A DNA stretch of 64,000 nucleotides, taken from positions 192,001-256,000 of the IMG/VR virus record IMGVR_UViG_3300033066_000693, one strand, 5' to 3'. Positions within the stretch are counted from its first letter, which is position 1, and each line of letters begins with the position of its first letter. The position numbers were made by a program, and so were the translations under genes. Shown one piece after another: positions 40,075 to 58,736 of this stretch. The stretch is from a virus. Below the pieces are notes generated by a model. The model saw only the letters and a program-made list of their open reading frames with translations, did no database searches and was not told where the DNA came from.

Positions 40075-40557
40075 CTAATTAGCTATGGATTCTATTGCGG
40101 CTACCACTACATCTGGATCAACAAAAGCTTGTTCGGTAAATACGTCCTGTTCCCAAAGTTCAAACTGCTGAGGCCGCAAAAAGACTCTATCTTTTAGCAA
40201 GTTGATGTTTTGCGCATAGCCGAAAATGTTTGGATCAGAACGACCAAACACAGCTACGCCTCTCTTGCCATGATAAGTGGCGAAATGATTGAAAAAATTG
40301 TCTACCGAAGCCCATGTTGCTGCCTCTGACAACAACTTGGCAAGATCCTTCAATTTTAGGCCTTGCTTGACCTCATCTGCCCCAATAGGGCCTTCCCCCG
40401 GAACGCCAACCTGAATGACACGATAGCCTTTAGACTGCAACTGCTTGGTTACTTCTTTCCACCAAGGATAGTTCTTTGGATTAACTTTGTCAGGGTCAGT
40501 GGGCTTTGCTTTTCTTAGCTTCTTAGAATAAGGACTGATGATTATTGTTTTCTTCAT
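40075..40557 (-). CDS. C-terminal (donor-binding) half of a GT9 heptosyltransferase-like glycosyltransferase, as a separate 160-aa ORF
   Basis: LKLKDLAKLLSEAATWASVDNFFNHFATYHGKRGVAVFGRSDPNIFGY matches the GT9 C-domain pattern (L.eL.all..a.l.ig.DSG..HlAaA.g.P.v.lFG.tdP); ATGA overlap with the upstream ORF, whose C-terminus is the GT9 N-domain. Confidence 0.5.
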   Translation of the reverse strand: MKKTIIISPYSKKLRKAKPTDPDKVNPKNYPWWKEVTKQLQSKGYRVIQVGVPGEGPIGADEVKQGLKLKDLAKLLSEAATWASVDNFFNHFATYHGKRGVAVFGRSDPNIFGYAQNINLLKDRVFLRPQQFELWEQDVFTEQAFVDPDVVVAAIESIAN

Positions 40558-41603
40558 AGTAGCATCTTTCGATAAGCGTCAACAAGTCTTCCCTTCCAAT
40601 TATGCTCAATCATGAAACGGTAAATGTTATGCTTGTCTTGGTCAGGGTCTATAAGCTTAGAATCTGCTATGCTGATAAGCTCAACTCCGTCTTCTCCCTC
40701 AAAGACTTCTGGATAACATACCCCAAGAACAATTGGCTGGTCCTTGTATTTCTCTTTCAGTTCTGGCAGCATCATCTTGAAGGCATAATGATCTCCCAAG
40801 CCGCAATCCAAGACTACAAGCTTGTCATGCATCGTCTGAATGCCATACTCTTCAAGTTTGCGATGGAATACCTTCTCGTCATGCTCCCACAAGAAGGATG
40901 ACTCATAAGAGCGGATACCCCCTCCCGGAGAACGAAGATGCCATATAACAGCCTTAGGGTCTACAATAAGCTTGAAGCCCGCCCTTCGCATTCCATAGGT
41001 AAACAGAGTCTCTTCTCTATGACCAACAGGAGAAAGTTCCATACAATAGCCATGCTTTGCCGCAGACTTGCGAAACAAAAAGCTGTTATTCAAATGGTCA
41101 ACTTCTCTTGCGCCTTCAAATCTAAACCATTGAACATTTGGTCTATTGAATATATGCTCTATCTTGTTAGACGCAAAATGAGAAAGATGAGTAACTTCAC
41201 CGGGAACAAGGATTAATCCGCTAACTGCTCCAACGTCGTCAGCTATGTTACTTACAAGGACTTCTAGAACATTTGATTCAGGAACATCATCGTCGTCTAC
41301 TCGCCATATCCATTCGGTTTTGGCTATCTCAATAGCTGCCTGATGATTATGGACTTGTCCTTTTCGTTGTCCGTAAATTACTTCGCAAGGTATACCCTTT
41401 GAATGGAACATGGCAAATAGGCTAGAGTAAAGAGGGTCCGGCCTCAAGTCTCTTTGCTCGCCATCGTCAAATATGATAACCCTTGCTGGCTTATAGGTTT
41501 GATTAGCGACCGCTGTAAGAGCAAGAGGTAGCGTTGTATGATACCTGTCTTTTGTAGATATCTCTACTGTTACTTCCACTCGTTTTGGTTTCTCATTCTC
41601 CAT
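40554..41603 (-). CDS. GT2 (GT-A fold) glycosyltransferase fused to a GT9 N-terminal domain
   Basis: N-terminal half ISTKDRYHTTLPLALTAVANQTYKPARVIIFDDGEQ (GT2 with DDG); C-terminal KLVVLDCGLGDHYAFKMMLPELKEKYKDQPIVLGV resembles the GT9 N-domain (kIlvirl.alGDvl.t.P.l.alk..yP.a.i). Confidence 0.55.
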   Translation of the reverse strand: MENEKPKRVEVTVEISTKDRYHTTLPLALTAVANQTYKPARVIIFDDGEQRDLRPDPLYSSLFAMFHSKGIPCEVIYGQRKGQVHNHQAAIEIAKTEWIWRVDDDDVPESNVLEVLVSNIADDVGAVSGLILVPGEVTHLSHFASNKIEHIFNRPNVQWFRFEGAREVDHLNNSFLFRKSAAKHGYCMELSPVGHREETLFTYGMRRAGFKLIVDPKAVIWHLRSPGGGIRSYESSFLWEHDEKVFHRKLEEYGIQTMHDKLVVLDCGLGDHYAFKMMLPELKEKYKDQPIVLGVCYPEVFEGEDGVELISIADSKLIDPDQDKHNIYRFMIEHNWKGRLVDAYRKMLL

Positions 41604-42312
41604 GCGTCATCTTTCTTGCTAGAGCATTAGCCCTAAACAGGCTTTCAAAAGTTCCTGCATCTGTCCACTCTCCAGAAACCATCTGGAAAGGCACCTCTCC
41701 TATCTGTAGATACTGATTGTTTACATCGGTAATTTCAAGCTCGCCTCTTGCTGAGGGTTTGAGTTTCTTTATGATGCTAAAAACTCGCCAATCGTAGATA
41801 TACAACCCAGTTACAACAAGATCAGAAACGAAAGCCTTTGGCTTTTCTACTATCGAGATAATCGTATCATTAGCAACTTGCGCAACTCCAAACCGTTCAG
41901 GAGTATTGCTCTTCTTCAAGAAAAGTTTCGCTCCCCATTTGAAATCAGAAACGTCAAACGTGTCTTCGAAGATATTGTCTCCGAGGATTACGGCAACAGA
42001 ATCTACCTTGCCTACAAAATCTTCTCCTAAGCTCAAAGCTTGAGCGATACCACCAGCCTCGTCTTGTATGCGATAGGAAATGCTTACTCCAAAATCTTTA
42101 CCGCTGCCAAGTAACTGAGCAATATGACCGCAATGCTCTATGCCAGAAACAATGAGTATCTCTCGTATACCCATCTTGATAAGAGTCTCAAGCGGATACA
42201 TGATCATTGGCTTGGAATACACAGGCAACAAGTGTTTGTTCGTGACCTTGCAGAGGGGATAAAGTCTTGAACCTGTACCACCCGCCAGTATAATGCCTTT
42301 TTTTACTGACAT
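41593..42312 (-). CDS. rmlA: Glucose-1-phosphate thymidylyltransferase (RmlA-like, short form)
   Basis: KGIILAGGTGSRLYPL...NKHLLPVYSKPMIMYPL...ILGDNIF matches the RmlA/RfbA N-terminal signature. Confidence 0.75.
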   Translation of the reverse strand: MSVKKGIILAGGTGSRLYPLCKVTNKHLLPVYSKPMIMYPLETLIKMGIREILIVSGIEHCGHIAQLLGSGKDFGVSISYRIQDEAGGIAQALSLGEDFVGKVDSVAVILGDNIFEDTFDVSDFKWGAKLFLKKSNTPERFGVAQVANDTIISIVEKPKAFVSDLVVTGLYIYDWRVFSIIKKLKPSARGELEITDVNNQYLQIGEVPFQMVSGEWTDAGTFESLFRANALARKMTHGE

Positions 42313-43160
42313 ATCTTCTCCAATTCTTTATATTTATCATACTTTCTTTCCAACCTATTTTCTCCAACATTACTGTATATCCATTGACATATTTTCAATA
42401 CTTGAAATCTTCCAGTATATCTCATCATATAATGATTAGCTTTTTTATTTTGACACCAGAGTTTGGTGGTTTCGATCCCAACGTACATCACAAGTCTTTT
42501 TTGGATTTCAAGTAGCAGTTCTTTAGTTCCAACAATTTGAAAACAATAGGAGTTTCTTTGCGGATAAATAAGAATACTTCCATCTCCTTCGAATACGCCT
42601 CTGATAAAAGCCCTATCTAAAAATTCTCCTTTTATACAATTAAGATATTCCTCGGCTCCGCTCTTCGTTGGTTTTATTCCGTACTCTATTAGCTTCGAAC
42701 GCAACACTGAAGAAGATATTTTGAGTAATTTCGCCTTGTATGTCTTATTTGTTTTCTTTAGATATGTACTAGAATTAAGAATTGGTCCTGAGTATCCAAA
42801 GAATTTTCTAATATACTCAAGAATAGATTGGTCTTTTATCGCTACTTTGCATCCAAAACAATTTTCATTCTTATGCACAAAACCGTCAGAAAGAAGCCAG
42901 CCTAAAATCCATGCTACATCTGTTGTTACATTATCTAGAGCATCTTCTCTTAAGGTATGAATTTGATTAGAAAGAAAACGATCTTTAGGCAATGACGCAA
43001 TCCCCAGCTTTTTCATTCTTTGAGATATAAACCACTGCGAAACTCCAAACTCTTTGGCTATAGATTTCTGCGATCTTTTCTCCTCAAAGTATTTTTTCCT
43101 GAGATCTAATTCAGAAAGCTCTATTTTCTTATTCTTTGGCATAAGCCATTTATCGACCAA
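42303..43160 (-). CDS. LAGLIDADG homing endonuclease (double-motif) with N-terminal helix-turn-helix, free-standing
   Basis: Motifs VAWILGWLLSDGFV and FIRGVFEGDGSI; HTH-like SIAKEFGVSQWFISQRMKKLGI; inserted between rmlA and the rmlD-like gene. The track start is TTG; the real start is more likely the ATG of MPKNKK 18 nt inside. Confidence 0.65.
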   Translation of the reverse strand: MVDKWLMPKNKKIELSELDLRKKYFEEKRSQKSIAKEFGVSQWFISQRMKKLGIASLPKDRFLSNQIHTLREDALDNVTTDVAWILGWLLSDGFVHKNENCFGCKVAIKDQSILEYIRKFFGYSGPILNSSTYLKKTNKTYKAKLLKISSSVLRSKLIEYGIKPTKSGAEEYLNCIKGEFLDRAFIRGVFEGDGSILIYPQRNSYCFQIVGTKELLLEIQKRLVMYVGIETTKLWCQNKKANHYMMRYTGRFQVLKICQWIYSNVGENRLERKYDKYKELEKICQ

Positions 43161-43239
43161 TACAGCAAATAACTTTAGTTTGTTACCTTAGTAAGAGGCA
43201 TGAGTCGGCTGCCAGTACCGCCAGCTAAAATGATTCCCT

Positions 43240-44100
43240 TCATGCAACCTCCAAGAGGCGTTCTGCTTCAACATACTTTCTTATGCAGGTATCGACAGCG
43301 GTAATCGCTGATCTCAACTGAATACCCTCGTCTTCGAGCTTTCTCGTAGAAAGAACGCAGTTAGACCGACGAACTTTCGTTATCGTGTCAAGTTCTTCTT
43401 CTGAAATGAGAGAGTATTTCAGTTTCTTTCCCGAAATCTCTTCATACATTTTGAGGATTTGCGAATGGAATATAGAGCCTTTGTTTACTACATTGTAAAT
43501 GCCAGAAACATCTTTCTCTATGAGAGTTTTTGCTACATAAAGAAGATCTGGAATGTATGTAATAGAGTTTGCAGATTCAACAATCTTGGAATAGCCTAAG
43601 AGCTTGGTCAACAAATTGCGAGGGTCTGGCTTATCTCCCAATGGCATTCGTATGCGAAGTTGAAGAGCATTCTGTCTGTTCAGGTATCGTTCAGAAACTA
43701 TCTTGGTCCAACTGTAATAACTACCGTCATAGTTTGGAGCGGTCTTTTCGGAATACCCTTCGCCATAATCGTCCCCTTGATACACGCAACCGCTTCCTAT
43801 ATGAACCATTTTCGCTTTATAAGCACGGCATGCTGTTTGAATATATGACGGAACCACAACATTCGAGAAAAACGTTGCCTGCCTATTTTCCTCGCTAGCT
43901 TCGCACCAATCTATATTAGGTCTTCCAGTCTTTCCTAAGCAGTTAATGACATGGGTTGGCCTGTAGTGATAGATTCGACTCATGATTTGGTTATAATCAG
44001 TAATGTACTCGGTATACAGACTTGTAGGATAGAATGTTTGAAAAAACTCGGCAAACTGCTTGCCAAGGTACCCTCCACCAATAACCATTATTGTATACAT
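43240..44100 (-). CDS. NAD(P)-dependent sugar-nucleotide reductase, RmlD-like (dTDP-4-keto-6-deoxyhexose reductase family)
   Basis: Rossmann MVIGGGYLG, catalytic YYSWTK (YxxxK), length 286 aa typical of RmlD; adjacent to rmlB. Confidence 0.55.
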   Translation of the reverse strand: MYTIMVIGGGYLGKQFAEFFQTFYPTSLYTEYITDYNQIMSRIYHYRPTHVINCLGKTGRPNIDWCEASEENRQATFFSNVVVPSYIQTACRAYKAKMVHIGSGCVYQGDDYGEGYSEKTAPNYDGSYYSWTKIVSERYLNRQNALQLRIRMPLGDKPDPRNLLTKLLGYSKIVESANSITYIPDLLYVAKTLIEKDVSGIYNVVNKGSIFHSQILKMYEEISGKKLKYSLISEEELDTITKVRRSNCVLSTRKLEDEGIQLRSAITAVDTCIRKYVEAERLLEVA

Positions 44101-44103
44101 AGC

Positions 44104-45066
44104 TTATTCTTTCAGCATATTACCCCACCATTCGTTATTGGAGAGGTACCATTCGATTGTCGCATCTAAACTAGTATCGAACCCGCTCTTAGGTTTCCAC
44201 CCAAGCTCATGAAGCTTGGTACAATCCAATGAATATCGCAAATCATGACCAAGCCTATCTCCAACAAACTTGATACTAGACTCATTCTTGCCCATCTTTT
44301 TGAGCAAACGTTTGGTAAGATCTATATTACTTACCTCATTACCTCCGCCTATGTTGTATACCTGACCTGCCACTCCATTCTCAATGACAAATGAAATAGC
44401 ATCGCAGTTGTCTTCAACATATATCCAATCTCTTACATTCTTTCCGCTTCCATAAACAGGAACTTGTTCATTTCTAGATAACTTGGCTATAAATAGAGGT
44501 ATGATCTTCTCTGGGAACTGATAAGGTCCAAAGTTGTTTGAAGATCTAGTTATGATTACTGGCTGCTTAAAAGTATGCATTGCTGAAAAACACAGCATCT
44601 CAGCAGCAGCCTTGGAAGCGCTATACGGAGAAGACGGACGAAGTATGTCCTCTTCTGTAGAAGACTTGTGATGAAACTCAAGAGATCCGTATACCTCGTC
44701 AGTAGATATTTGAACAAACAAGCTAGCATTCTTTTCTCTGGCAGCACCAAGCATAAGCGCAGTACCCAGAACATTTGTATGAAGAAACGGTAGCTCATTC
44801 TGGATAGAGCGATCTACATGACTCTCTGCTGCAAAGTTAACAACTATATCGCCTGAACGGATAACGTCCTTTGCCGTAAATCCGTCGCATATGTCCGCTC
44901 GAACAAACGTATAGTTTGGCAAAACATCCAACTCTCTCTTTGTTTCAAGGCTTGCAGCATAGGTCATTTTATCAATATTGACAACGCTATGCGTCCCTTT
45001 GGAAAGAATGCTTCTAATAAAGTTACTACCAATGAATCCTAATCCGCCTGTTACTACTATATTCAT
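44104..45066 (-). CDS. rmlB: dTDP-glucose 4,6-dehydratase (RmlB)
   Basis: IVVTGGLGFIGSNF, FAAESHVDRSI, STDEVYG, SPYSASKAAAE (YxxxK), RDWIYVEDN: canonical RmlB motifs in order. Confidence 0.85.
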   Translation of the reverse strand: MNIVVTGGLGFIGSNFIRSILSKGTHSVVNIDKMTYAASLETKRELDVLPNYTFVRADICDGFTAKDVIRSGDIVVNFAAESHVDRSIQNELPFLHTNVLGTALMLGAAREKNASLFVQISTDEVYGSLEFHHKSSTEEDILRPSSPYSASKAAAEMLCFSAMHTFKQPVIITRSSNNFGPYQFPEKIIPLFIAKLSRNEQVPVYGSGKNVRDWIYVEDNCDAISFVIENGVAGQVYNIGGGNEVSNIDLTKRLLKKMGKNESSIKFVGDRLGHDLRYSLDCTKLHELGWKPKSGFDTSLDATIEWYLSNNEWWGNMLKE

Positions 45067-48000
45067 GAGTTGTTCTTCTTATGAAAGCGATCAGAAATCT
45101 CAGGAGTCCTCTTGGACGCCATGTTTGAAGAGAACTTTACCGTATAGGTAATCTTCGAATCGCTGTTTTTCTTGAACTTGTATCCAGCCTTTGCGATTCT
45201 CACCCACATGTCCCAATCTTCAATAGAATCCAAAGAACTATCAAATCCTCCAACAGACAGACACTTAGCTTTATGAACTACGCTTGAGATGTATATAAAT
45301 GGACAACGACGCATAAACTCCAAGCCGGGATACTCCGGAGGATTTGGTATTCCGTCAGGATAAGCTATAGAACCGTCTGTGAATTCGTGCCTAACTTCTG
45401 AATAGACCAAATCAGCCTCTTGGAGAGCCTTTATTTGAGAAGATAGATGGTTTTCGTCCCAAACATCGTCGGAATCGCAATAAGCTATATATTCAAAGCC
45501 TCCGCTCTCTTTTATCTTGTCCAGAGCGGCGTTTCTGGCGGAGCTTACTCCTCCATTGGGTTTCTCAATAATCTTGATGCGAGAATCTTTTTTGCGCCCC
45601 AAAATGGTAGAAGCTCTATTCTCAAGGCTAGAGCCGTCGTCTACCAAGAACAGAACCCAATCCCTATATGTTTGGCTTACAATAGCCATTGTACTAGAAA
45701 CAAGCATGTCTTTATCATTGTAGTAAGGCATAACAATCGCTACTCTGCCGCTCTTAATCCACTTCTTCTGCAAAAACCTCTCTTGGTTCTCAACAATGAA
45801 CTTTGGATATGTTGAGTCTATGCTAACCAAGACTGGAACATGAGGAGGATTATCTCTACCGAGAGCTTCTTTACAGCTATCTATGTTCTGCTGAATCTTC
45901 TCGGCATTGGTGAACTCTGGTTTGTTAAGTTCTTGATGGGCATAAGATTCAAGCTTTTCTACAATCTTCTCGGCTCCGCCCATCCATCCAAAATGCCATC
46001 CTCCGTCTGCTATACGATCATTCTCTGTAATCGTTTGATATCTAAGGTCAGTTAGCCCATAGTTGACTTTCTTCAAGTTGCCGAATGTAGTTATGCGACT
46101 ATAAGCTCCCGGCCCCGGCTTGCTTATGCCAACGCTCATATTGAGATAGTAGTTGTACTGGTGCTGTTCAAAGTACATCCAGTCTTTCTGACCTTTGTAC
46201 TCTTGTATTTTTGAGCCTCTAGGAATCTCGTCAAGATCAGAAAGGATAATGATGTCGTTCTCTTGGCATTGCAGCAAAGAGTTGATCATAAAGTTGCGCT
46301 GATAATGCTCTCTAACCCAAGCATTATCTGTTTGAGGACACTCGTTTATGATGACATGGATAATCTTAGGCCAGAATCTTCTAAATCTTTCCTTGTTCTC
46401 ATTGAAGTAAAGGGGCTTTGGCTTACCAGAATGCGTAACATTCATTTCGCATAAAACGAAGTGATCTACGTAAGGGTCTAGCTCGTTCAATCTAACCTCA
46501 AGTATGTCTAGCTCATTGAAGAAACAAAAGCAATCATAAACCTTTGGCTTAGGCTTTGCTTTTTCCTTACGCACAAACTTGAAGTTCTTGGTATTTATGA
46601 GCTTTGGATCAAGCGGGATAAATATGTCATAAGCACCTGATGCAGGATTGAACATCCAGAAGCCCATTTGATGTTCTTGAATAGGAACGCAATCATAGCC
46701 TAGTTTTTCAATATACTCTCTCAGCATACTGAAGTTGTATTCCTTGTTTGGATGCAGAGTGTTATGGAACTCTGCAAAGATTGTCTTGCATCGCAATATG
46801 TCTCTAGGATCTGCTTTTAGCAGTATGTCATACTCAGAACCCTCGCAATCTATCTTAAGTACAACGTCATTATCTCCCGGGAAATACTCCAACGCCTGCG
46901 CAAGGCTGATAGCCTTGATTTTCGATCCATTTCCGTTTTCTGACAACTTGGCTACGGGACCGCCTCCTTCTAGAACAACCTCTGTCGTGCCGGGCGAAGA
47001 AACAGCCACATGAACAGGATGAACATTCGAGTATTGCTTCATGTTACTTACTAAGAGCTTATATGTTTCTTCAATTGGTTCAAACGAGACTATCTTTTTG
47101 GCTCCAAGCGTAGTACACAGATAAGAGAACATTCCTACATTGCCGCCAATGTCAAGAACGCTCTTGTTCTCTACGTCTTCTCTAAATACGCTATATGAGT
47201 TTAGGCCAATCACTTCATGAAAAAGGTTGCTCTCATACGCAAGAAATGTTTCTCGAATATCAATAGCTTTTCTAGGAACAAATATCAAACCTTTCTCTTC
47301 GAACTTCTTCAGATTGTCTCTTACAAATTTAGGATACGTTTCGTCAATTTGAACCGGGGAGAAAGACAAATCTCTTCCTAGAACGTCTTTGCCATTCTCT
47401 ATGGACTTAACTACGTTGTCGTCGTTGTTGATTCTGTCGTTATTGAACTCGTCATGCGCCCAGTTATTGATCTTGTCTTTGATATGGTCTTTGTCTCCTA
47501 AGAAGCTGAAGTGCCATCCTGCGTCTTCAAATACATGCTTGTAGCCATAGTCATTTTCCCCTCGGAAGTATTGAAGATTACGACCTTTCAGTTCTGCGTA
47601 TGGGAAGATTCTTACCTTATACCACTTGATGGGAGTTTCCAAATTGAGTCTGTAATAGAACAGTCTTGTTTGCAGACAACATATACCCATACTTATATTG
47701 TACTGCTTTACAACAGAAGCCCTAGGAATCTCGTCTACGTCAGAAAGAATGATGATATCATTGTCCTTGCAGTCCTTCAGCCCTCTTGCTATTTGATTGC
47801 GCTGATAAGGCTCTCGAACCCATGTATCCGTAGTAGGAGGAAACTCCTCAACGATTACATGCTCAATCTTGTGCAAGAACTTCTTGAACCGCTCTTTGTT
47901 CTGCTCAAAGTAAAGAGGCTTTGGCTTGCCCTGATGACTATATCTAGCCTCAGCCAGAACGAACTTGTCTACAACGCTATCTAGCTCGTTCAAGCGTATT

Positions 48001-51000
48001 TCTAGAACGTCTAGCTCATTGAAGAACATAAAACAGTCATATACTTTTGGCTTGCTAGGACTAACCCTATCTATAATTGTCAATCCATTGCAGTTATCAA
48101 ATATCTCCCTTATCCTCCATTCCTTATTTTCAGCCAAGAAATCATTAATTGCGTCAACAAGCCCCTTAGAATAGTTCTCTTTGAACTTCCAATCCCACTC
48201 TTCTCCGTCTTGGCTCTTATGCCCAAAAGTAACAGTATCATGCATTATGATGTACTTCTTTACTTTGGACGAGTGCATTCGTAGTTCAGCTAAAAGCTGA
48301 TCATACGAGTGCTTGGTATCAATGAATAGCAAGTCGGTAGGCTCTATCTCTATTTGCAGGCAATCTCTGGCTTCAAATGTGAAGTTGATTCCTTTGCGGC
48401 TTGCCTCGGTAGCCACCTTCTCCACAGCAGGACAATAGAACTTGTCATAAGATCTCATAATCTTAGGAAGTCCTGCAAACAAGCCCCATGTTGAGTTGCC
48501 AGTTCTAACCCCAAACTCTGTTATGTGTTCGCACTCTTGCGCATACTTCTTAAGAGTTGGAAGATGCTCATAGATGTCTCCTGATATCCCCTCATGATTA
48601 GTGCTTCTCTTCTCGTACTCTTCAAGGGTTGGGTCTTTATGCTTTTGCTTGATATAGAGAGCGTTCTTTGGCGATTTCTCCTCGTCATTGCTTGTATAAA
48701 TCTCTCTGAATGTTCCGCCTCCCTTGTGAACCATAGGGAACAAGAACAATCTCTCGTCATTCCCGGGAGACTTATCACTGTATGTGATATCATGAGGAAC
48801 TTCTACAAGAGCATAGCCTTCGTCTGCCGCTCGCTTGCAGTAATCAGCGTCTTCATGATAACCAATACCAAACTCCTCGTCTAGGTATCCTATCTTAGAG
48901 ATTACTTCTCGCTTGATCATAGCGCAGAAGAAAAGAAGATACTCGCTCTGTATATCGCTTCTCCATGACTTCCTAGCCCCTGTAATCCCAACTTTAGGAT
49001 TAGAAAAAGGAGCAGACAATACAGATATCCAAGATCTATCTAGTATCTCTGTGTCATTGTTGAGAAGTATAACATACTCGCCTTCCGCAAGCTTCATGCC
49101 TGCATTCGTTGGCTTAACGTATCCCAATGCCTTATCAAACCAGACAAGCTTGAAAGAAGACCCAAGACTCTCTACGTAGGCTTTCGTGCCATCGGTACAT
49201 CCGTTTGCGACAACGATAACCTCGACATTGCTCATGTCTGTATACTTGATAATGCTTTCAATACAAGGCCTAAGATGATCGTCTAGATGGTTGTATGTTG
49301 GAATGACAATGGAATACTTTGGCTTAATCTTCTTGCTAGGCTTTTCTGCCTCGACTCTCATGTTATAGCCCCAATGAGATGTGAACTGAGGCTCAAGCCT
49401 CTTGAGGTTCGTAAACCCAACGCCTCCAAGATGGTCAAACATGATTTCCTCATACCATCCAAATAGATGAGGATTGCTAACCTTTGGGTCATAGACAGTT
49501 GTACCGTATATGCAGTTGAGGAGAGTATACCTATCTATTTTGTTAGCTGCTTCAAAATGGCGACAGAGTTCTAGAATGTCTGGCAACTCAAGACATAGCT
49601 TTCCTCCGGGTGCCAAAACTCTAAACCATTCAGCAAGGATTGCTGACGCCTCATAGCAAGAAAAATGCTCAAAGACATGGATAGCAGATATCTCGTCAAT
49701 GCTATTGTCTGGGTATTCTAGCTTACGAGCGTCCATTTTTACGTCTGCGGCTGGGCTATACAAGTCAATATTGATGTACCCCGGCATAAGAACGTCGCCG
49801 CATCCTATGTTTAGCTTCTTTTTCTTATTGCCGTATCTATCAAGCAAGATAGCCTCGTTTCTTGCAACGATTTCCGTCCATTTTGGAACGCCATGCACAG
49901 TTTGGCTAGATTTGTGCCAAATAGGGAAATGAATCACATGGTCAGATGCGTCTCTAAGTCTATTATACTTTACGTCATTTGGAACTTGAACAACATCAAG
50001 ATTGGCTTTATGTAACTTCCAACAGTAGTCAATATCCTCGCCATATCCGGGATTAAAGATCTCGTCCAACAATCCAAACTTCTCAATGATGGTATCTTTC
50101 AACATTACGCAGAAAAACAACAAGAACTCGAAGCTTGTCTCGGCATGAAAGTTCTTAGCTGCGCCAGTTATTCCGGTCTTTGGATTATCTATGTAAGGCT
50201 TTTCCAACATTCTAAGCCATTCACTCTTGGGTTGTTCAAGAAGTATGTTGTCATTGTTTAATAGAACAACATACTCTCCCATAGAGATCTTGATTCCTTC
50301 ATTAGTTGCCTTTGTGTAACCAGCGGGGTCAGTCATCCAGAATAGCTTAAATGGATGACCCAATCCTCGAACATAGTCCTTAGTTCCGTCAGTACAGCCA
50401 TTAGCGACAACAATAACTTCAACCTCGTCAAGGTTAGTGTACTTGATAATGCTTTCGAGACATGGCTTGAGACAGTCATCCAAATGGTTATAAGTCGGGA
50501 TAATGATGGAATACTTTGGCTTTGGGTGCTTAGTAATCACAGATTTTCTATTGTGGTCAGTCATCTTGATGTCCTTAAACGTTATTTTGTCTTTGTGATA
50601 GATAGGAAACTCTCTATTGACATTAGGATTATGAAGTAGAGAGTCTGTATCAAAATCTAGATCATAGTGAATGTCAGTAGGGATTTGCTTTATCAGATAT
50701 CCGGCTTTAGAGAGACGAACGCAAAAATCAATGTCCTCTTCATACCCTAAGCCAAATCCCTCGTCCAATATTCCTATCTTATCGAAAATCGACCGTCGAA
50801 TCATGGCACAAAAGAAAACCATGTACGGTTGTCTGAATATCGTCTTACCATTGTTCCATGCTAAGCGAATATCTTTGTTTGGTCCAGTTATACCAGTCTT
50901 AGGATTTTCAATGAAAGGCTTCTCAAGCATATTAAGCCAATCGTTCTTCTTTTGAGGACAAAGAACAACGTCATTGTTGAGCAGTACAACAAACTCTCCC

Positions 51001-51251
51001 CTTGACGCTCGGATACCAGCGTTGGTGGGCTTGATATACCCCTCAGGATTTTTCATCCAAATCAGCTTAAATGTTGGACCAAGACTCTCTACAAAAGCTT
51101 TCGTGCCATCAGTACAGCCATTGGCAACGACAATGACCTCAACCTCGTCAAGGTTAGTGTACTTGATAATGCTTTCGAGACATGGCTTGAGACAGTCATC
51201 CAAATGGTTATAAGTCGGGATGACAATAGAATACTTTACGCTAGAACTCAT
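45063..51251 (-). CDS. 2062-aa multidomain glycosyltransferase/methyltransferase polyprotein
   Basis: Approximate domain map: GT2a 50577-51239, GT2b 49842-50516, class-I SAM MTase 49347-49817 (LNIGCGDVL...HVFEHF), GT2c 48672-49319, Methyltransf_24-like O-MTase 48072-48599 (EFGVRTGNSTWGLFAGLP...LLFIDTKHSY), GT17-like 47262-48050 (YDCFMFFNELDVLEIRLNELD...GKPKPLYF), FkbM-type MTase 46617-47234 (VLDIGGNVGMFS...KIDCEGSEYDIL), second GT17-like 45762-46550, GT2d 45066-45746 (VAIVMPYYN...LVDDGS...CDSDD). Confidence 0.7.
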   Translation of the reverse strand: MSSSVKYSIVIPTYNHLDDCLKPCLESIIKYTNLDEVEVIVVANGCTDGTKAFVESLGPTFKLIWMKNPEGYIKPTNAGIRASRGEFVVLLNNDVVLCPQKKNDWLNMLEKPFIENPKTGITGPNKDIRLAWNNGKTIFRQPYMVFFCAMIRRSIFDKIGILDEGFGLGYEEDIDFCVRLSKAGYLIKQIPTDIHYDLDFDTDSLLHNPNVNREFPIYHKDKITFKDIKMTDHNRKSVITKHPKPKYSIIIPTYNHLDDCLKPCLESIIKYTNLDEVEVIVVANGCTDGTKDYVRGLGHPFKLFWMTDPAGYTKATNEGIKISMGEYVVLLNNDNILLEQPKSEWLRMLEKPYIDNPKTGITGAAKNFHAETSFEFLLFFCVMLKDTIIEKFGLLDEIFNPGYGEDIDYCWKLHKANLDVVQVPNDVKYNRLRDASDHVIHFPIWHKSSQTVHGVPKWTEIVARNEAILLDRYGNKKKKLNIGCGDVLMPGYINIDLYSPAADVKMDARKLEYPDNSIDEISAIHVFEHFSCYEASAILAEWFRVLAPGGKLCLELPDILELCRHFEAANKIDRYTLLNCIYGTTVYDPKVSNPHLFGWYEEIMFDHLGGVGFTNLKRLEPQFTSHWGYNMRVEAEKPSKKIKPKYSIVIPTYNHLDDHLRPCIESIIKYTDMSNVEVIVVANGCTDGTKAYVESLGSSFKLVWFDKALGYVKPTNAGMKLAEGEYVILLNNDTEILDRSWISVLSAPFSNPKVGITGARKSWRSDIQSEYLLFFCAMIKREVISKIGYLDEEFGIGYHEDADYCKRAADEGYALVEVPHDITYSDKSPGNDERLFLFPMVHKGGGTFREIYTSNDEEKSPKNALYIKQKHKDPTLEEYEKRSTNHEGISGDIYEHLPTLKKYAQECEHITEFGVRTGNSTWGLFAGLPKIMRSYDKFYCPAVEKVATEASRKGINFTFEARDCLQIEIEPTDLLFIDTKHSYDQLLAELRMHSSKVKKYIIMHDTVTFGHKSQDGEEWDWKFKENYSKGLVDAINDFLAENKEWRIREIFDNCNGLTIIDRVSPSKPKVYDCFMFFNELDVLEIRLNELDSVVDKFVLAEARYSHQGKPKPLYFEQNKERFKKFLHKIEHVIVEEFPPTTDTWVREPYQRNQIARGLKDCKDNDIIILSDVDEIPRASVVKQYNISMGICCLQTRLFYYRLNLETPIKWYKVRIFPYAELKGRNLQYFRGENDYGYKHVFEDAGWHFSFLGDKDHIKDKINNWAHDEFNNDRINNDDNVVKSIENGKDVLGRDLSFSPVQIDETYPKFVRDNLKKFEEKGLIFVPRKAIDIRETFLAYESNLFHEVIGLNSYSVFREDVENKSVLDIGGNVGMFSYLCTTLGAKKIVSFEPIEETYKLLVSNMKQYSNVHPVHVAVSSPGTTEVVLEGGGPVAKLSENGNGSKIKAISLAQALEYFPGDNDVVLKIDCEGSEYDILLKADPRDILRCKTIFAEFHNTLHPNKEYNFSMLREYIEKLGYDCVPIQEHQMGFWMFNPASGAYDIFIPLDPKLINTKNFKFVRKEKAKPKPKVYDCFCFFNELDILEVRLNELDPYVDHFVLCEMNVTHSGKPKPLYFNENKERFRRFWPKIIHVIINECPQTDNAWVREHYQRNFMINSLLQCQENDIIILSDLDEIPRGSKIQEYKGQKDWMYFEQHQYNYYLNMSVGISKPGPGAYSRITTFGNLKKVNYGLTDLRYQTITENDRIADGGWHFGWMGGAEKIVEKLESYAHQELNKPEFTNAEKIQQNIDSCKEALGRDNPPHVPVLVSIDSTYPKFIVENQERFLQKKWIKSGRVAIVMPYYNDKDMLVSSTMAIVSQTYRDWVLFLVDDGSSLENRASTILGRKKDSRIKIIEKPNGGVSSARNAALDKIKESGGFEYIAYCDSDDVWDENHLSSQIKALQEADLVYSEVRHEFTDGSIAYPDGIPNPPEYPGLEFMRRCPFIYISSVVHKAKCLSVGGFDSSLDSIEDWDMWVRIAKAGYKFKKNSDSKITYTVKFSSNMASKRTPEISDRFHKKNNS
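50421..51240 (-). repeat. Intragenic duplication: about 100-nt near-identical segments at 50421-50520 and 51141-51240 (start of the GT2a and GT2b modules)
   Basis: tcaacctcgtcaaggttagtgtacttgataatgctttcgagacatggcttgagacagtcatccaaatggttataagtcggga occurs twice almost verbatim. Confidence 0.7.
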
Positions 51252-51306
51252 TCAGCGCTGCCTTTCGGTTATACCTTATCTATCGGTTAGGAAGAGGATC
51301 TAGGAC

Positions 51307-52299
51307 TTACTGGAAACGCATATCCGAGCCTCTGCCCTTAGAACCTCTTGGTCCTATTCTTGGAGTTTGAACAATCGGGCTTCCCTTTGGCTTATTAGCA
51401 CAACAGGTTTGCAAAAGCTCAAATGTCTTCTGAATGCTGTTTCCTAGCTCTTTATCAACTCTTGCAAGCTCGTCTAGGGTTTTGCCTGTAGAGATGGAGA
51501 TGGCAATGAGAATTGCTTGCTGTAGGGCGGTAAAATCGCAATCTACGACTCCGCCTGCCGTTAGAGTACGATTTGCATACTCCCAAATCTGTTGAGGGGT
51601 TATCGCAGAACTTGTAAGGGTTCTTGTTCCATACTCCCACACCTTGCGAGCGATTTCCAACCAATCGCCCTGCTCTTTGCCCCAGCAGACTCGTAGCGTT
51701 CCTGTATTGAGATCGACAGAGCGATTAGGGGTAGCTCCCTTTCGCTGCCAAACCTCTAAATAGTAGTATTGATTACCGACTACAGGAGGTATATTGCTTA
51801 CATCTGTAATGATGTACTCATAAAAACCCAACCTTTCGCTGTCTTCTACAAGAGGAAGAACAAAGTCCGTTTGAGTAGCAAGCGTATAGGTTTCAAACGT
51901 GCCTGTCGAAGGCTTCCATGCTTTATCCAAGTCTTCTGCCGAGAACAAAAGAGCGTAAAGTGTCAGTGCTGGCTGGTCGCTGTATGTAATGTCAAAAACT
52001 GTATCAATCTCTCCAACGCAGCATTCATTATTTGCGCAGCATAGAGAATCTTCATTGGTTATGTCTATGAATGACAAGACTTTAGAAGTATCGTTTTGGT
52101 CATAGAACTTTACCCCTCCGCGAAAGTTTTCAGGAACGTTGTTGTATTCCCAAAGATAGAAACCTTCGCCAATCTCAATAAAGCCATCGGAGATGAGGGG
52201 AGTCACGTTTGCCCCAGAAGTCTTGATAAGCTGGGCGCAAAGGGATACTCCGGCGTAACCGGCTCCCAAGTTTACTGATATTGCAATGTTGGATGGCAT
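51307..52299 (-). CDS. 330-aa structural protein, paralog (N-terminal 75 aa) of the 35665..36147 product
   Basis: Shared N-terminal module (see 35665..36147); Cys-rich CCANNECC patch mid-protein. Confidence 0.55.
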   Translation of the reverse strand: MPSNIAISVNLGAGYAGVSLCAQLIKTSGANVTPLISDGFIEIGEGFYLWEYNNVPENFRGGVKFYDQNDTSKVLSFIDITNEDSLCCANNECCVGEIDTVFDITYSDQPALTLYALLFSAEDLDKAWKPSTGTFETYTLATQTDFVLPLVEDSERLGFYEYIITDVSNIPPVVGNQYYYLEVWQRKGATPNRSVDLNTGTLRVCWGKEQGDWLEIARKVWEYGTRTLTSSAITPQQIWEYANRTLTAGGVVDCDFTALQQAILIAISISTGKTLDELARVDKELGNSIQKTFELLQTCCANKPKGSPIVQTPRIGPRGSKGRGSDMRFQ

Positions 52300-52318
52300 A
52301 GTTATTCTTCGACCACTT

Positions 52319-52915
52319 TCATGCTAAACCTACTATTGTTTTTACGCTAGCAATAGCAAGTCCGTCTATTGTTTTTACGCTGGCTCTAGCAAGTCCTACT
52401 ACTGTTTTTTGAGATGTGCTTGAAGCTGTATAGTCTATAGAAATAGAAAAAGAATCTATACTACAAGTACATGCTTTAGGGCCAGCCCTCCTCACACTAA
52501 TCACCACGCCAAATGTACTGGCATTCACATCTGTATCAGTGAGTGTGTTTCCCCACAAATTAGATGTTGAGCCATATGTTACATCAGTAGCAGCATTAGG
52601 CCAATTGGTTGCTGTAACACCTAAGTTACTACCGCTTACTGTACCACCTTTTACTAAAGAAACAACAACATCTCTACCATTTGTGGTAGCTTTTTTATTA
52701 ATTGTTACAGTGATTCCATTGATTGTAGCACCAGAAGGAACAGAAAAACCAAAGTTTGTAGCTTTCAGATAATGAGACTGTGCAGAGGGAGCAGCATTTG
52801 TTGCAAACGTGCTGTTTGTAGTCCCTTGAGCATTAGTAACATTAGACCACGCTGTAGTACCAACAGAAGCGTCATCGGCAACCGTACCTGCATTATTCGG
52901 ACCTGCTGTTGACAC
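52319..52915 (-). CDS. 198-aa Thr/Ser/Asn/Gly-rich protein ending in tandem 11-aa repeats (KTVVGLARASV / KTIDGLAIASV / KTIVGLA)
   Basis: ORF; the C-terminus is encoded by a 33-nt tandem repeat at 52322-52412. Confidence 0.5.
   Translation of the reverse strand: MSTAGPNNAGTVADDASVGTTAWSNVTNAQGTTNSTFATNAAPSAQSHYLKATNFGFSVPSGATINGITVTINKKATTNGRDVVVSLVKGGTVSGSNLGVTATNWPNAATDVTYGSTSNLWGNTLTDTDVNASTFGVVISVRRAGPKACTCSIDSFSISIDYTASSTSQKTVVGLARASVKTIDGLAIASVKTIVGLA
52322..52412 (-). repeat. 33-nt tandem repeat, about 2.7 copies (ctattgtttttacgctagcaatagcaagtccgt-like)
   Basis: Seen directly at the 3' end of the 52319..52915 CDS. Confidence 0.6.
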
Positions 52916-53527
52916 TTAAAATCTCCTAAGACTAGAATCTACAAACTTCAAAGCATTCTCATTTACTGGCAAGCCTACAAAATTTGCTATTCCTTGAATT
53001 GTTATCTCAGAATTATCTACTAATTGATCAAACTCTACAATTAACTTGGGGACATTAGCAATTGCAAGTTGCGCATTATGTACCTCAATAAGTTTTGCAT
53101 ACCGCTCTTCAGTATTAGGATCGTTTGCTCTAGCTCTCCAACTTTCCTTACTTTTTTCAAGAGGTCGCTGCGTGATAATAAGTTTTATATCAGGCAAATT
53201 CAAAAACTCATCAGCTAAAAATCCAATAAGATGGTTCTTGACTCCCCATATTATTCCTCTGCTCATTCGATCTTGAATGATTCTCCTAATCCTCAATCGT
53301 CCATCATTATTTGAATCAATAGGTAGAGTCCATGTAATCGGATCATTTTCATTAATTAGCTCTAAGGCTTCAGTTATAATTCGATCAACAAAAAATCCTT
53401 TAGCATTCCATTCTGGATCTGATTCAAATAAATCATCTCCCATATGAACACCTAAATTATGTAATATTCCAGCGATACAACTAGTTCCACTTCTTGGTAA
53501 GCCTAAAACTAAAACGCATGTTCCCAT
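52916..53527 (-). CDS. Sulfotransferase (Stf0/Sulfotransfer_3-like)
   Basis: N-terminal VLVLGLPRSGTSCIAGIL matches the PAPS 5'-phosphosulfate-binding loop (PRSGTT/PKSGTT); later IITQRPLEKSKES fits the 3'-phosphate-binding R-x(n)-S element; about 200 aa, as in small bacterial sulfotransferases. Confidence 0.5.
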   Translation of the reverse strand: MGTCVLVLGLPRSGTSCIAGILHNLGVHMGDDLFESDPEWNAKGFFVDRIITEALELINENDPITWTLPIDSNNDGRLRIRRIIQDRMSRGIIWGVKNHLIGFLADEFLNLPDIKLIITQRPLEKSKESWRARANDPNTEERYAKLIEVHNAQLAIANVPKLIVEFDQLVDNSEITIQGIANFVGLPVNENALKFVDSSLRRF

Positions 53528-53536
53528 ATTTCGCCT

Positions 53537-56500
53537 TTAGGTATGAGTGATATAAGTCAGATCAGGGAAGAAATACATTCTATCAGCATGAGTAGCAATA
53601 CCGAGTACCTGAATTACATTATCGGTTGCGCTAGGCTGAGTTTGAGTCAAGGCTCCTGCTGTGGTTGAAAGATAAACTATACCGCCGACAGTCCAAGCCC
53701 ATGCATCATTACGAGCTATTCCATGCAGCAAAATATTGCCAGCATTGCTTGATGTTATTGTAGCTGTAGCCATTCCCATACACGGATAAGTAGCTGAACC
53801 ATCTGCGTCAGCCTTCCATACAAGACCATCAGATTTTAGATAAACAACATCTCCGAATGCTAGATTTTCTCCTGCTGTCAAACTGATTATTAAGCCATTT
53901 GCTGTTACGTCTGATCCCGGAACCGCTGTAAGAGACAAAGCTCCTGAATAACCGCTGTAAGCTGAGTATCCCGAGAAGCCTGACGAACCTTGCGTTCCAA
54001 TATATCCTGAGAAGCCGCTATAAGCCGAGTAACCGCTTCGACCACTATAAGCTGAGTAACCAGAGAAGCCGCTTATACCAGAGTAAGCAGAATAGCCACT
54101 GAAGCCGCTTAGACCGCTATATCCTGAGAAGCCACTATCCCCGCATATGGCTGTTATACAGAAATTTGCTCTTAGAAGAGTAATTACATCCGTATTTATC
54201 ATATTCTTAATGCGTATATCAACCGTGTCTGTTGCAGACAATGACAATACGCCGGTAAGAGATACTGAAAATATTCCGGTATTAGGATCTGTTGTTGTTG
54301 TTCTAGTGACAATGTTAGATTGAATACCATTTACAAAAACAGAGAAATTGAAGTTGACCGCAGTAATGGCACTATTAAAAGACAATGAAGCGTTTACTAA
54401 GTAAGCCCCATCTGATCCTGCAATAGCTTGACCAGCAGAATTTGTAAATCCTACTTGCGAACTTAGAGTTAGACCACTAAGAGAGTCCCAATCACCAGAT
54501 CCATCATATACCCAACCGCTTACTCCATCAGTCGTATCAACTAGTTCAATATAAGAAGCTACTCCCGGAGTCGCTGCCGCTCCGCTATAACCACTGAAAG
54601 CAGAGTAACCACTAAAGCCAGAGAAGCCGCTGTAAGCTGAATAACCGCTGCGACCGCTATAAGCAGAGTAGCCAGAGAAGCCTGAGACGCCTGAGTAAGC
54701 GGAGTAACCGCTGAAGCCAGAAGGCCCGCTGTAGCCGCTGAAACCGCTCGGTCCTGAATAACCACTAAAGCCAGAAGGCCCGCTGTAGCCTGAGAAGCCG
54801 CTTATGCCAGAATAAGCTGAATAGCCTGATCGCCCACTGTACCCTGAGAAGCCACTAGCTCCATCAACGCCAATAATTCCATCTGATCCTTTATATCCGC
54901 TGAAGCCGCTTATACCAGAATAAGCAGAGTAACCGCTGAAGCCAGAGATACCGCTATAAGCAGAGTAGCCCGAGAAGCCTGAAGATCCCTGCGGTCCTAT
55001 GTAACCAGAGAAACCGCTGTAGCCAGATTTTCCTGAGTATCCGCTGAATCCAGATCCACCGTCTGCCCAACTTGTATTACCAAATCCATCTGTTCTTAGG
55101 AACTGACCATTGACTCCGCCGCTTGTAGGAGGGGAGAATGAAGAACTATAAGTTCCTGCCTGTGGATATATTGAAACGGTACCAGTATTTCCGCTGTTGT
55201 ATAAAGAGAAACCAATACCATCTCTAAATTGAACAGGATTACTTGCGCTGAATCTCCATGTTGTTTCGTTAACATCATTTACTTCTAGTTGTAACTGCGA
55301 AACATCTCCGATTTTATCCACTCTCAAAATATCATAACTAAAATCACCGCTATTTGGGCTTTGTTTGATTATGAGTGATGAAGTATCATTACTTGTCGGA
55401 GTAATTGTATTACGAGTTGGAGAACTAGGAGCAACAAGAACTGCCTCGTTCAAATTGGCAGAATAACCGCTGTATCCTGATACTCCAATATAACCGCTGT
55501 ATCCTGAGAAACCGCTATAAGCAGAATAACCACTCTTACCGCTGTAGCCTGAGAAGCCGCTATAAGCAGAATAACCACTAAAGCCAGAAGAACCTTGCGG
55601 CCCAACGTAGCCTGAGAAGCCAGAAGACGCAGCCGCGCCGTCAGCGCCTTTATCTCCTGTTCTTGTAAAGCTTATTACAACCACATCATCAGTCGAGAAC
55701 AAAAAGCCAGATACAAAACTGCCTGTAACATAGGTTACCGGGATAAACAAGCCCCATGTATTGCTTCCGTCAGCAACTACCGATCCTGTTATTTGAAAAT
55801 CAGCAAAAACTGACGAGTTATCTTCTTTGAAAACTCTAATAGATCCCTTAGTAGTATTAGTGCTATCATCAATAGCATTAATCCATGTGGTTATATCTGT
55901 TCCAGATGAATTGAGAGGACTAATACCAACAAATCCTGCTAAAGTAGGATCTGCTGTTGTATTACCTATAGTTGTATTAAATGCCAAAACGCCCGGATAT
56001 GGTCCTGAGCCAGATATTCCCGACTCCTCGTATATATACTCTTGACTATCTCCGCCAAATGCCCCTATTAGACCGCTAAAGCCTGAGAATCCGCTTGTTC
56101 CAGTTCCACTATAACCTGAGAAGCCGCTATAGCCTGAAAATGCTGAATAGCCCGAGAAAGCCGAGTACCCGGAGAAGCCTGAGTAAGCAGAGTAACCGCT
56201 CTTGCCGCTGTAGCCTGAGAATGCAGAATAGCCTGATACTCCGCTGTAACCGCTAAAGCCTGACGTACCGCTGTAAGCTGAATATCCTGAGAAACCTGAG
56301 ATACCTTGCGCACCAATGTAACCACTGAAGCCCGAAGAACCTTGCGTTCCTATGTAACCTGAGAAGCCTGAAGAGCCAGAGTAAGCAGAGTATCCGCTTA
56401 TGCCACTGTAAGCTGAGTAACCCGAGAAACCGCTTATGCCACTGTAAGCTGAATATCCGCTAGAACTAGCCGAGCCGTCTAATCCCTTATCCCCTGCGCG

Positions 56501-58327: not shown

Positions 58328-58328
58328 T

Positions 58329-58733: not shown

Positions 58734-58736
58734 AAT

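Follow-up and report, generated by a model that had tools for sequence, protein, structure and literature searches.

A putative glycosylation cassette among collagen-like fiber genes in a jumbo-phage lineage

We describe here a cassette of predicted nucleotide-sugar, glycosyltransferase (GT), methyltransferase (MT) and sulfotransferase genes in 64,000 nucleotides of viral DNA (IMG/VR record IMGVR_UViG_3300033066_000693, positions 192,001 to 256,000; this whole stretch is the window, and all coordinates refer to it unless a contig is named). The cassette is situated among genes for collagen-like fibers, and sequence comparisons lead us to consider it probable, with moderate confidence, that the encoded enzymes glycosylate the phage's own fibers. 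Every long open reading frame (ORF) of the window is encoded on the minus strand. From 38.5 kb onward the genes are closely packed in a single block that reaches the window end, with intergenic gaps of -11 to +79 nt. Within this block a set of soluble cytoplasmic enzymes appears to have been inserted into the fiber module, between the gene for a 330-residue protein with a predicted immunoglobulin (Ig)-like fold and a fiber gene. The initial annotation had described a contiguous enzyme cassette of about 13 kb between collagen-like fiber genes, and the tight packing, the common orientation and the flanking fibers bear this out, although the region also includes a LAGLIDADG homing endonuclease and two non-enzymatic ORFs. 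A promoter and terminator scan of the cassette gave no excess over shuffled sequences and no intergenic terminators, and is uninformative on operon limits.

Enzymes of the cassette

Three of the genes would provide an activated deoxysugar. At the level of sequence homology, the first enzyme is a short-form, RmlA-type glucose-1-phosphate thymidylyltransferase of 239 residues (41593-42312; Pfam NTP_transferase, E 1.9e-53) that would form dTDP-glucose, and the second is the 320-residue RmlB dTDP-glucose 4,6-dehydratase (44104-45066; TIGR01181, 415.4 bits against a cut-off of 365.1, E 1.3e-124), which would convert it to dTDP-4-keto-6-deoxyglucose; both assignments had been proposed previously and both hold. 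The best NCBIfam model for the RmlA-type protein is rmlA (TIGR01207). The match covers profile positions 1-236 of 286 and, since the protein lacks some 50 C-terminal residues, its 234 bits fall short of the equivalog cut-off of 360. The third enzyme (286 residues, 43240-44100) had been read as an RmlD-like reductase. It is indeed a short-chain dehydrogenase/reductase of the Pfam RmlD_sub_bind type, but it is closer to the NRS/ER-type bifunctional NDP-4-keto-6-deoxyglucose 3,5-epimerase/4-reductases: phmmer searches of solved structures align about 235 residues with Arabidopsis 4QQR (E 4.9e-41) and with the Mimivirus L780 UDP-L-rhamnose synthase (7JID, E 1.7e-29), whereas the bacterial RmlD structure 3SC6 is matched at merely E 1.1e-9 and the rmlD model TIGR01214 with 47 bits against a cut-off of 224. 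Residues C105, Y129-x3-K133 and K166 align with C115, Y144/K148 and K183 of 4QQR; the Cys/Lys pair (C105/K166) would be the acid-base pair for epimerization, and the YxxxK motif is the catalytic one of this enzyme type.

This single enzyme would thus both epimerize (3,5) and reduce (4) the keto sugar, and its predicted product is NDP-L-rhamnose. No dTDP-sugar isomerase/cupin family match, as expected of an RmlC 3,5-epimerase, was found among the ORFs of the cassette or of the remaining window, presumably because the NRS/ER-type enzyme carries out both reactions. The putative pathway is therefore a hybrid of bacterial RmlA and RmlB types with an NRS/ER-type enzyme, and the cassette falls outside the classical RmlABCD pathway, the sequences giving neither an RmlC nor an RmlD proper. 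NRS/ER-type enzymes are common in metagenomes, including those of DPANN archaea and bacteria of the candidate phyla radiation, and some homologs are annotated as 3,5-epimerase/4-reductases.

Between the epimerase/reductase and rmlA genes lies the LAGLIDADG homing endonuclease (42303-43160; Pfam LAGLIDADG_3, E 3e-07; phrog_4645, E 2.7e-32), which is a selfish element outside the sugar pathway. It is present in the relatives L003-5 and L008, whereas the same junction lacks it in L002, L006 and L014. We also note that the GT2 homolog of relative L021 (L021:11666-13780) carries an intein (Intein_splicing and LAGLIDADG_3), such that the glycosylation genes are targeted by selfish elements of two kinds, a free-standing endonuclease here and an intein in L021.

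The largest product of the cassette is a 2062-residue protein (45063-51251), for which hmmscan of nine separate segments, together with a scan of the whole protein, returned exactly the domain content proposed previously, namely four GT2, two GT17-like and three MT domains (Methyltransf_11, CmcI-like and FkbM) in the order GT2-GT2-MT-GT2-MT-GT17-MT-GT17-GT2. The N-terminal part comprises GT2a (residues 1-240), GT2b (~245-460), a class-I MT (~480-600) and GT2c (~645-880); the middle a CmcI-like MT of the rhamnosyl-O-MT type (~910-1060), GT17-like a (~1066-1300) and the FkbM MT (~1367-1520); and the C-terminal part GT17-like b (~1564-1800) and GT2d (~1836-2062). The earlier label of polyprotein does not fit, as no processing is indicated, and we regard the protein as a multidomain enzyme. 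Pairwise identity is 51-58% among GT2a, GT2b and GT2c and 45% between GT17-like a and b, which shows that internal duplication gave rise to part of the protein. In relatives the enzyme ranges from 995 residues (two GT2, one GT17, one MT) to 2990 residues (five GT2, three GT17 and at least four MT), and variation in domain number of this kind is expected of a diversifying surface glycan.

The downstream end of the cassette encodes a 349-residue GT2 (40554-41603; Pfam Glycos_transf_2, E 2.9e-14) and a 160-residue GT9-like protein (40075-40557; Pfam Glyco_transf_9, 28.3 bits against a cut-off of 22). These had been described as a GT2/GT9 fusion; they are two ORFs with a 4-nt overlap, and are separate in every relative. 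The GT2 protein is 51-69% identical across all relatives and carries a conserved C-terminal extension of about 100 residues to which no fold could be assigned. What is detected of a heptosyltransferase-type GT-B fold in the GT9-like ORF is its C-terminal half alone, the one that binds the nucleotide sugar; the ORF has the conserved motifs SVDNFFNHFA and FGRSDP, with 50 invariant columns over six relatives, and a profile of five relatives matches residues 237-293 of Escherichia coli WaaC (E 0.026). We considered a split GT-B enzyme of GT9 type composed of the GT2 C-terminal extension and the 160-residue ORF, but concatenating the two did not lengthen the Pfam or PDB match. The initial annotation also listed two GT4 genes outside the cassette. 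The one at 4207-5304 is solid (Pfam Glyco_trans_1_4, E 3.9e-16; phrog_2170, E 6e-32), and it has homologs in L001, L016, L021 and L028, with cassette-less relatives included; it belongs to the lineage core and has no specific tie to the cassette. The other, 22766-23935, falls below threshold as a GT4 (E 6.6e-4; PDB, E 0.6). Overall, nearly every glycosyltransferase, sulfotransferase and methyltransferase call was upheld by profile searches against Pfam, NCBIfam and PHROG.

The composition of this enzyme set bears on where its glycan might be placed. Clusters for O-antigen and capsule typically contain Rml genes, GT2 enzymes and FkbM/CmcI methyltransferases, and the GT families of the cassette are categorized by PHROG as 'moron, auxiliary metabolic gene and host takeover', so that modification of the host envelope (lipopolysaccharide O-antigen, capsule, S-layer or teichoic acids), blocking superinfection or altering the surface as in seroconversion, has to be considered. 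Yet hydrophobic or transmembrane segments are absent from all of the cassette enzymes, family scans of the 64-kb window returned no flippase, polymerase, ABC transporter or polyprenyl-phosphate transferase, and the cassette is embedded among co-oriented structural genes and co-varies with a feature of the phage's own fibers (see below). Because the enzymes are soluble and membrane-pathway genes are lacking, a macromolecular substrate in the cytoplasm is a better fit than an envelope polysaccharide pathway, and we regard envelope modification as distinctly unlikely. Phage glycosyltransferases are best known for glucosylating DNA, which raises the further option that these enzymes hypermodify phage DNA with sugars to evade restriction. 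A diversity of DNA glycans is on record (PMC12619734, citing Pyle 2024), and the window does encode a DNA methyltransferase (32145-33008). Against this, no hydroxymethylase or other base-modifying gene was found in family scans of the window, the MTs belong to sugar-O-methylating families (CmcI rhamnosyl-O-MT and FkbM), and the cassette is placed in the fiber module and co-varies with the fiber repeats; DNA modification is thus extremely improbable.

Co-occurrence of cassette and collagen-like fibers

Glycosylation of the fibers draws its main support from comparison with relatives, as the link had previously been proposed from adjacency and is now supported by synteny, co-occurrence and positional enrichment. 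The cassette is syntenic in about ten related jumbo-phage contigs, the syntenic relatives being distinct IMG/VR contigs of 124-494 kb and one metagenome contig of 506 kb. The recurring order is collagen-like gene(s), the 330-residue protein gene, the multidomain GT/MT gene, the genes for RmlB, the epimerase/reductase, RmlA, GT2 and the GT9-like protein, and then a collagen-like gene. This full order is seen in L002, L004/5, L006, L014 and L008, the last of which is 98% identical at the nucleotide level over the cassette. Minimal cassettes in L021 and L028 have an FkbM-type MT, a GT2 and a GT9-like gene only, directly before a collagen-like gene, and a more distant contig in a Gallionella metagenome-assembled genome (MAG) keeps the order GT2, GT9-like, collagen-like. 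The set MT-GT2-GT9-like is the minimal conserved core of the cassette.

For a count of co-occurrence we used the flanking 330-residue protein (or a 245-residue form of it) as a neutral marker of the site, and sought collagen-like blocks within 10 kb on each side. Within the lineage defined by this protein, collagen-like genes are present at all nine informative cassette-bearing loci (9/9) and at none of the ten cassette-less loci (0/10), where the 330- or 245-residue gene is followed directly by non-collagen fiber genes that have the same N-terminal anchor motif. In a neighbor-joining tree of the marker the cassette-bearing and cassette-less states are interleaved, which implies that gain or loss of the cassette has coincided with that of the repeats on more than one occasion. 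An independent metagenome sample of 33 loci, collected through GT2 homologs of 42-66% identity, shows a corresponding enrichment by position, with the ORF directly after the GT9-like gene being collagen-like in 11/33 loci compared with 6/175 of the other ORFs at the same loci (odds ratio 14, p=2e-6).

Fiber repeats, possible sulfation and a proposed mechanism

Three collagen-like fibers are encoded around the cassette. Directly downstream is a 491-residue protein (38555-40030; Pfam Collagen, E 2.1e-35) with the N-terminal anchor motif NGQVLxYNSxxGKWENK, 93 G/A-X-S triplets and a C-terminal globular domain, and a collagen-like gene is found at this position in relatives also. Directly upstream is a 1216-residue protein (53537-57187; Pfam Collagen, E 5.2e-45) in which globular domains separate five G/A-X-S blocks (165 triplets); Phage_cement_2 reaches 23.1 bits against a cut-off of 24, and the C-terminal domain resembles a phage neck-fiber domain (PDB 8KEG, 'neck fiber gp82N', E 7.4e-4). 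The third fiber extends from 59192 to beyond 64000, its frame being open to the window end with the N-terminus beyond it, and it exceeds 1600 residues and contains a PA14 domain and no fewer than 309 G/A-X-S triplets (Pfam Collagen, E 9.8e-90; PA14, E 1e-14). The PHROG matches of the fibers are to tail-fiber and collagen-like minor tail families. The earlier description of the fibers as G-[F/Y/P]-S triplets is borne out at position three, which is Ser in 81-95% of triplets, and at position two, where the order is Y>F>P and Pro is scarce, as well as in the hundreds of hydroxyl residues, with 720 Ser and 295 Tyr in the three proteins jointly; it does not extend to position one, where Gly is not invariant, as considered below.

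Two further observations concern these genes and their surroundings. The counterpart of the 1216-residue fiber in L008 (L008:7772-9991) is only 739 residues long in a strain nearly identical over the cassette, and the nearby beta-helix gene region (57227-58327) has just ~78-80% nucleotide identity to L008; this suggests rapid recombination or length variation of the fibers, or possibly collapse of repeats during assembly. In addition, a gene for a subtilisin-like Peptidase_S8, with a GT4 gene a few genes further upstream, consistently precedes the fiber module in L008 (478-1308), L016, L021 and L028. In the phage described here its position falls just past the window end, and such a peptidase could process the fiber proteins.

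The last enzyme of the region is a small, 203-residue sulfotransferase (52916-53527) of the type that uses 3'-phosphoadenosine 5'-phosphosulfate (PAPS), and its presence in the cassette, as first proposed, stands on a Sulfotransfer_3 match above the cut-off (30.8 bits against 27), on the PAPS motifs and on the fold. A G-x-PRSGTS loop (residues 9-16) and R121 and S129, eight residues apart, are invariant in eight homologs, and they correspond to the classical 5'-phosphosulfate-binding (5'-PSB) and 3'-phosphate-binding (3'-PB) motifs of sulfotransferases. The protein has the sulfotransferase fold, and by two methods its nearest solved structures, by a small margin, are tyrosylprotein sulfotransferases (TPSTs); it shares the PAPS-binding motifs and overall fold with TPST1/2 and with bacterial Stf1 and Stf9. 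Sulfation of some target by this enzyme is plausible from its sequence.

Several findings weigh against glycosylation and sulfation of collagen-like fibers as we propose it. The first concerns the repeats themselves, in which position one is Ala in 10/93, 27/165 and 48/309 triplets of the three fibers (11-16%) and strict Gly runs span just 5-26 triplets, so that the G/A-X-S repeats do not have the uninterrupted Gly at every third residue that defines collagen in the strict sense. With Ala in place of Gly in about one in seven triplets, it is doubtful that a true triple helix forms, and the claim that the hydroxyls are displayed on such a helix, while favored by the strong Pfam Collagen match, is weakened by this broken periodicity. 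Second, only 25/295 fiber tyrosines have Asp or Glu within three residues, unlike the usual context of tyrosine sulfation, and most of the fiber tyrosines thus lie outside the acidic peptides that TPSTs recognize. The sulfotransferase is, moreover, found at the cassette locus only in this strain group and is absent from all more distant relatives, and its homologs occur in unrelated contexts with no consistent link to fibers, such as a replication-type region in L022 and beside large ORFs in L023. Third, no recognizable protein O-glycosyltransferase family is present, and the initiating step of glycosylation is consequently a guess. Lastly, 22/33 GT2/GT9-like pairs of the independent sample precede a non-collagen gene, some of them in non-structural neighborhoods, which implies that the pair does not serve collagen-like substrates exclusively.

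The last of these points, two thirds of the pairs in a broad metagenome set, speaks for an arrangement in which the targets of the cassette are virion proteins of another kind (capsid, tail tube or non-collagen fibers, for example), and in which adjacency reflects mere placement in the structural module. Such targets have a precedent in mycobacteriophage glycans on capsid and tail tube (PMC12619734, citing Freeman 2023), and the GT4 gene is core to the lineage with or without the cassette. However, cassette and collagen repeats co-vary strictly within the lineage even though each of these phages presumably has its capsid and tail genes, and the enrichment of collagen-like genes at the downstream position is strong; we therefore view this alternative as unlikely. 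The departures from Gly periodicity and the scarcity of Pro raise a different prospect, that the G/A-X-S repeats form some other Ser/Tyr-rich fibrous or beta structure and that the product of the cassette is a polysaccharide lying free on the fiber layer or only loosely bound to it, instead of short O-glycans on Ser. The duplicated GT domains would suit a repeating polymer, and Mimivirus fibrils bear polysaccharides (PMC9614988). Against it stand the very strong Pfam Collagen and PHROG collagen-like matches, though these are driven by composition, and the absence of polymerase and export genes, and we judge it very unlikely.

Glycosylation of the collagen-like fibers accordingly remains the reading that we favor, and we envisage it as follows. 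With NDP-L-rhamnose supplied by the three-enzyme pathway, the core GT2, GT9-like and MT enzymes would start a glycan on the hydroxyl-rich G-X-Ser repeats, and possibly also on Tyr, with an initiating sugar that probably comes from the host pool, given that the minimal cassettes have no Rml genes. The nine-domain enzyme, with its six GT and three MT domains, would then extend and O-methylate a rhamnose-containing oligosaccharide in the host cytoplasm, before or during fiber assembly. In the weakest step of the scheme, the small sulfotransferase of this strain may add sulfate to the glycan or to fiber tyrosines. The outcome would be fibers with a dense, lineage-variable glycan coat that could stabilize the Pro-poor repeats, protect them or mediate adhesion. 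Galactosylated Thr takes over the helix-stabilizing role of hydroxyproline in the cuticle collagen of a vent worm, and one can imagine a stronger version of the scheme here, with a proteoglycan- or mucin-like coat in which methylated rhamnose O-glycans are placed on hundreds of fiber Ser residues by an enzyme working as an assembly line, its transferase domains numbering up to 12 or more, replace hydroxyproline in its stabilizing role, and are joined in this strain by TPST-like sulfation of Tyr or glycans. We offer this version as a doubtful one.

Neighboring genes, lineage and known systems

The 330-residue protein (51307-52299) at the upstream edge of the insertion site is conserved and non-enzymatic. 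Its AlphaFold2 model (pLDDT 74) has two Ig-like beta-sandwiches followed by C-terminal helices, Foldseek matches are only to generic Ig-like structures, and there is no Pfam, NCBIfam or PDB sequence match. All of its 33 homologs are on phage-like contigs, some of them in cassette-less relatives. The adjacent Ser/Thr/Asn-rich ORF of 198 residues (52319-52915) has no family or PDB match and is probably structural; it is present in L008-L013 and absent from other relatives. We considered both as missing enzymes of the pathway, such as RmlC, and rejected them, since neither has a family match and the 330-residue protein has an Ig-like model and exists without the cassette. The N-terminal Ig-like domain of the 330-residue protein has a paralog in a 160-residue ORF at 35665-36147 (minus strand), and homologs of these two proteins flank the fiber module in relatives as if bracketing it. 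The helical part of the 330-residue protein (residues ~215-266) contains repeats of the short motif [VI]W[EA]YxxR[TE][LI]T, which recurs in dozens of otherwise unrelated viral contigs (L039-L072) and may be a widespread assembly or attachment motif. Between the second and third fibers, at 57227-59144, are genes for a 366-residue beta-helix protein (Pfam Beta_helix, E 7e-4) and for structural-module proteins of 134 and 135 residues (phrog_10330, virion structural protein, E 5e-20), and the order of these three genes is kept in L002 and L008.

The window derives from a jumbo-phage lineage. It encodes a tail tube protein (PF18906, E 1.6e-14) and other phage-type products, including a PHROG minor tail protein, PhoH, the DNA methyltransferase and two homing endonucleases, and proteins identical to those of the window are found on a 257,887-bp contig. 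The phage is represented in the metagenomes JGI 3300045312-16, SRR23702537 and SRR32380195. Megablast of a 13.6-kb region against 50,697 phage records gave no match, and neither did tblastn of a 712-residue protein and the tail tube protein against deposited phages; for the nine-domain protein tblastn gave only partial matches, with coverage of at most 25%, as to GT17-like genes of Synechococcus phages. By these searches, the phage has no close relative among deposited phages. The only binned relatives are in two MAGs of iron-oxidizing groups, L073 (JBAZAY010000020.1, Gallionella sp.) and P0039 (Mariprofundales), which may hint at a host or a habitat of iron-rich groundwater or mats, but the contig is of low coverage and could be mis-binned.

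Elsewhere in the window there are no tRNAs or Rfam families. The first ~4.2 kb (1-4207) has no ORF longer than 109 residues on either strand, the remainder of the window being densely coding, and this segment could contain a cluster of very small genes or be non-coding. An actin-like protein of the Volactin family is encoded at 26157-27230 (minus strand; Pfam PF25216, E 2e-57, far over the cut-off of 35), with no sequence match to a solved structure at E<=0.01, and it adjoins the second LAGLIDADG homing endonuclease (27220-28029). The ORF at 19232-19843 (minus strand), with the large tail-module proteins on one side and the tail tube region on the other, is the sole ORF of the window with strong hydrophobic segments (36 Kyte-Doolittle windows [KD19] at or above 1.6).

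By its gene content the cassette belongs with systems in which virus-encoded GTs act with or without sugar-modifying and nucleotide-sugar enzymes, and in its proposed working it is most like those of PBCV-1, Mimivirus and Bacillus anthracis BclA. The A064R protein of chlorovirus PBCV-1 has the domain order GT-GT-MT and assembles methylated L-rhamnose on the viral capsid protein; with three domains in 638 residues it has been described as one of few enzymes with three transferase domains (PMC9614988). The likeness to PBCV-1 A064R/A061L lies in soluble virus-encoded GT and sugar-O-MT activities in one chain, a methylated L-rhamnose glycan made in the cytoplasm on a structural protein, and virus-encoded synthesis of the sugar nucleotide (PMC9614988, PMC4691112), which in the phage are predicted from the genes. 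The phage enzyme is considerably larger, with nine domains in 2062 residues and up to 2990 residues in relatives, and whereas PBCV-1 has an algal host, N-linked capsid-protein glycans and other domain families, the phage has a bacterial host, GT2 and GT17-like domains and fibers as the proposed target. Mimivirus has the L780 rhamnose synthase, collagen-like proteins and a glycosylated, rhamnose-containing fiber layer (PMC4691112, PMC9614988), and shares with the phage both virus-encoded collagen-like proteins and the bifunctional 3,5-epimerase/4-reductase type, L780 being matched at E 1.7e-29 as given above. The phage dehydratase and nucleotidyltransferase are, in contrast to the Mimivirus (R141/L780) pathway, of bacterial RmlB and RmlA types, its cassette has no lysyl hydroxylase or L230-like enzyme, its repeats are G-X-Ser and not Lys/Pro-containing, and it is a tailed phage and not a member of the Nucleocytoviricota.

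Among cellular systems, rhamnose genes adjoin bclA in Bacillus anthracis, and the BclA repeats resemble those described here in having a hydroxy amino acid at position three of a collagen-like repeat. The collagen-like region of BclA, an exosporium glycoprotein, bears an O-linked rhamnose-anthrose glycan with an O-methylated deoxysugar cap (PMC6222408, PMC6947953). BclA differs in being cellular, with GPT repeats and a four-enzyme RmlABCD pathway, and in having neither a megasynthase-like multidomain GT/MT nor a sulfotransferase. The only phage virion glycosylation of which we know is of the simpler mycobacteriophage capsid and tail-tube type. In Che8, Corndog and Myrna, GTs encoded in or near the structural module O-glycosylate the phages' own virion proteins, as related by PMC12619734 (citing Freeman 2023), and these are thus likewise tailed phages with their own GTs in the structural module. 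Their targets are C-termini of capsid and tail-tube subunits, their GTs are few and single-domain, and they are not known to have a comparable nucleotide-sugar pathway of their own, collagen-like substrates or a sulfotransferase. The literature that we searched contained no prior description of a phage with collagen-like fibers together with rhamnose or glycosylation.

Self-encoded virion glycosylation is established in giant eukaryotic viruses and, in a simple form, in mycobacteriophages. If the proposal is correct, it extends a complexity of the giant-virus style, with an own nucleotide-sugar pathway, multidomain GT/MT enzymes and collagen-like fibers, to tailed phages, and it places a rhamnose synthase of the 'eukaryote/giant-virus' NRS/ER type alongside bacterial RmlA and RmlB. 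No multi-transferase polypeptides larger than the nine-domain enzyme and its longer relatives are known for the assembly of glycans, and their natural variation in domain number is a ready system for relating domain content to glycan structure. The cassette also provides testable candidates for stabilizing or shielding Pro-poor bacterial or viral collagen-like repeats, and a candidate for phage-encoded sulfation; were TPST-like sulfation of fiber tyrosines or glycans to prove true, it would be the first phage-encoded system for sulfation of protein or glycan. Fibers coated with glycan in this manner would affect the adsorption, the environmental stability and the immune or defense recognition of jumbo phages.

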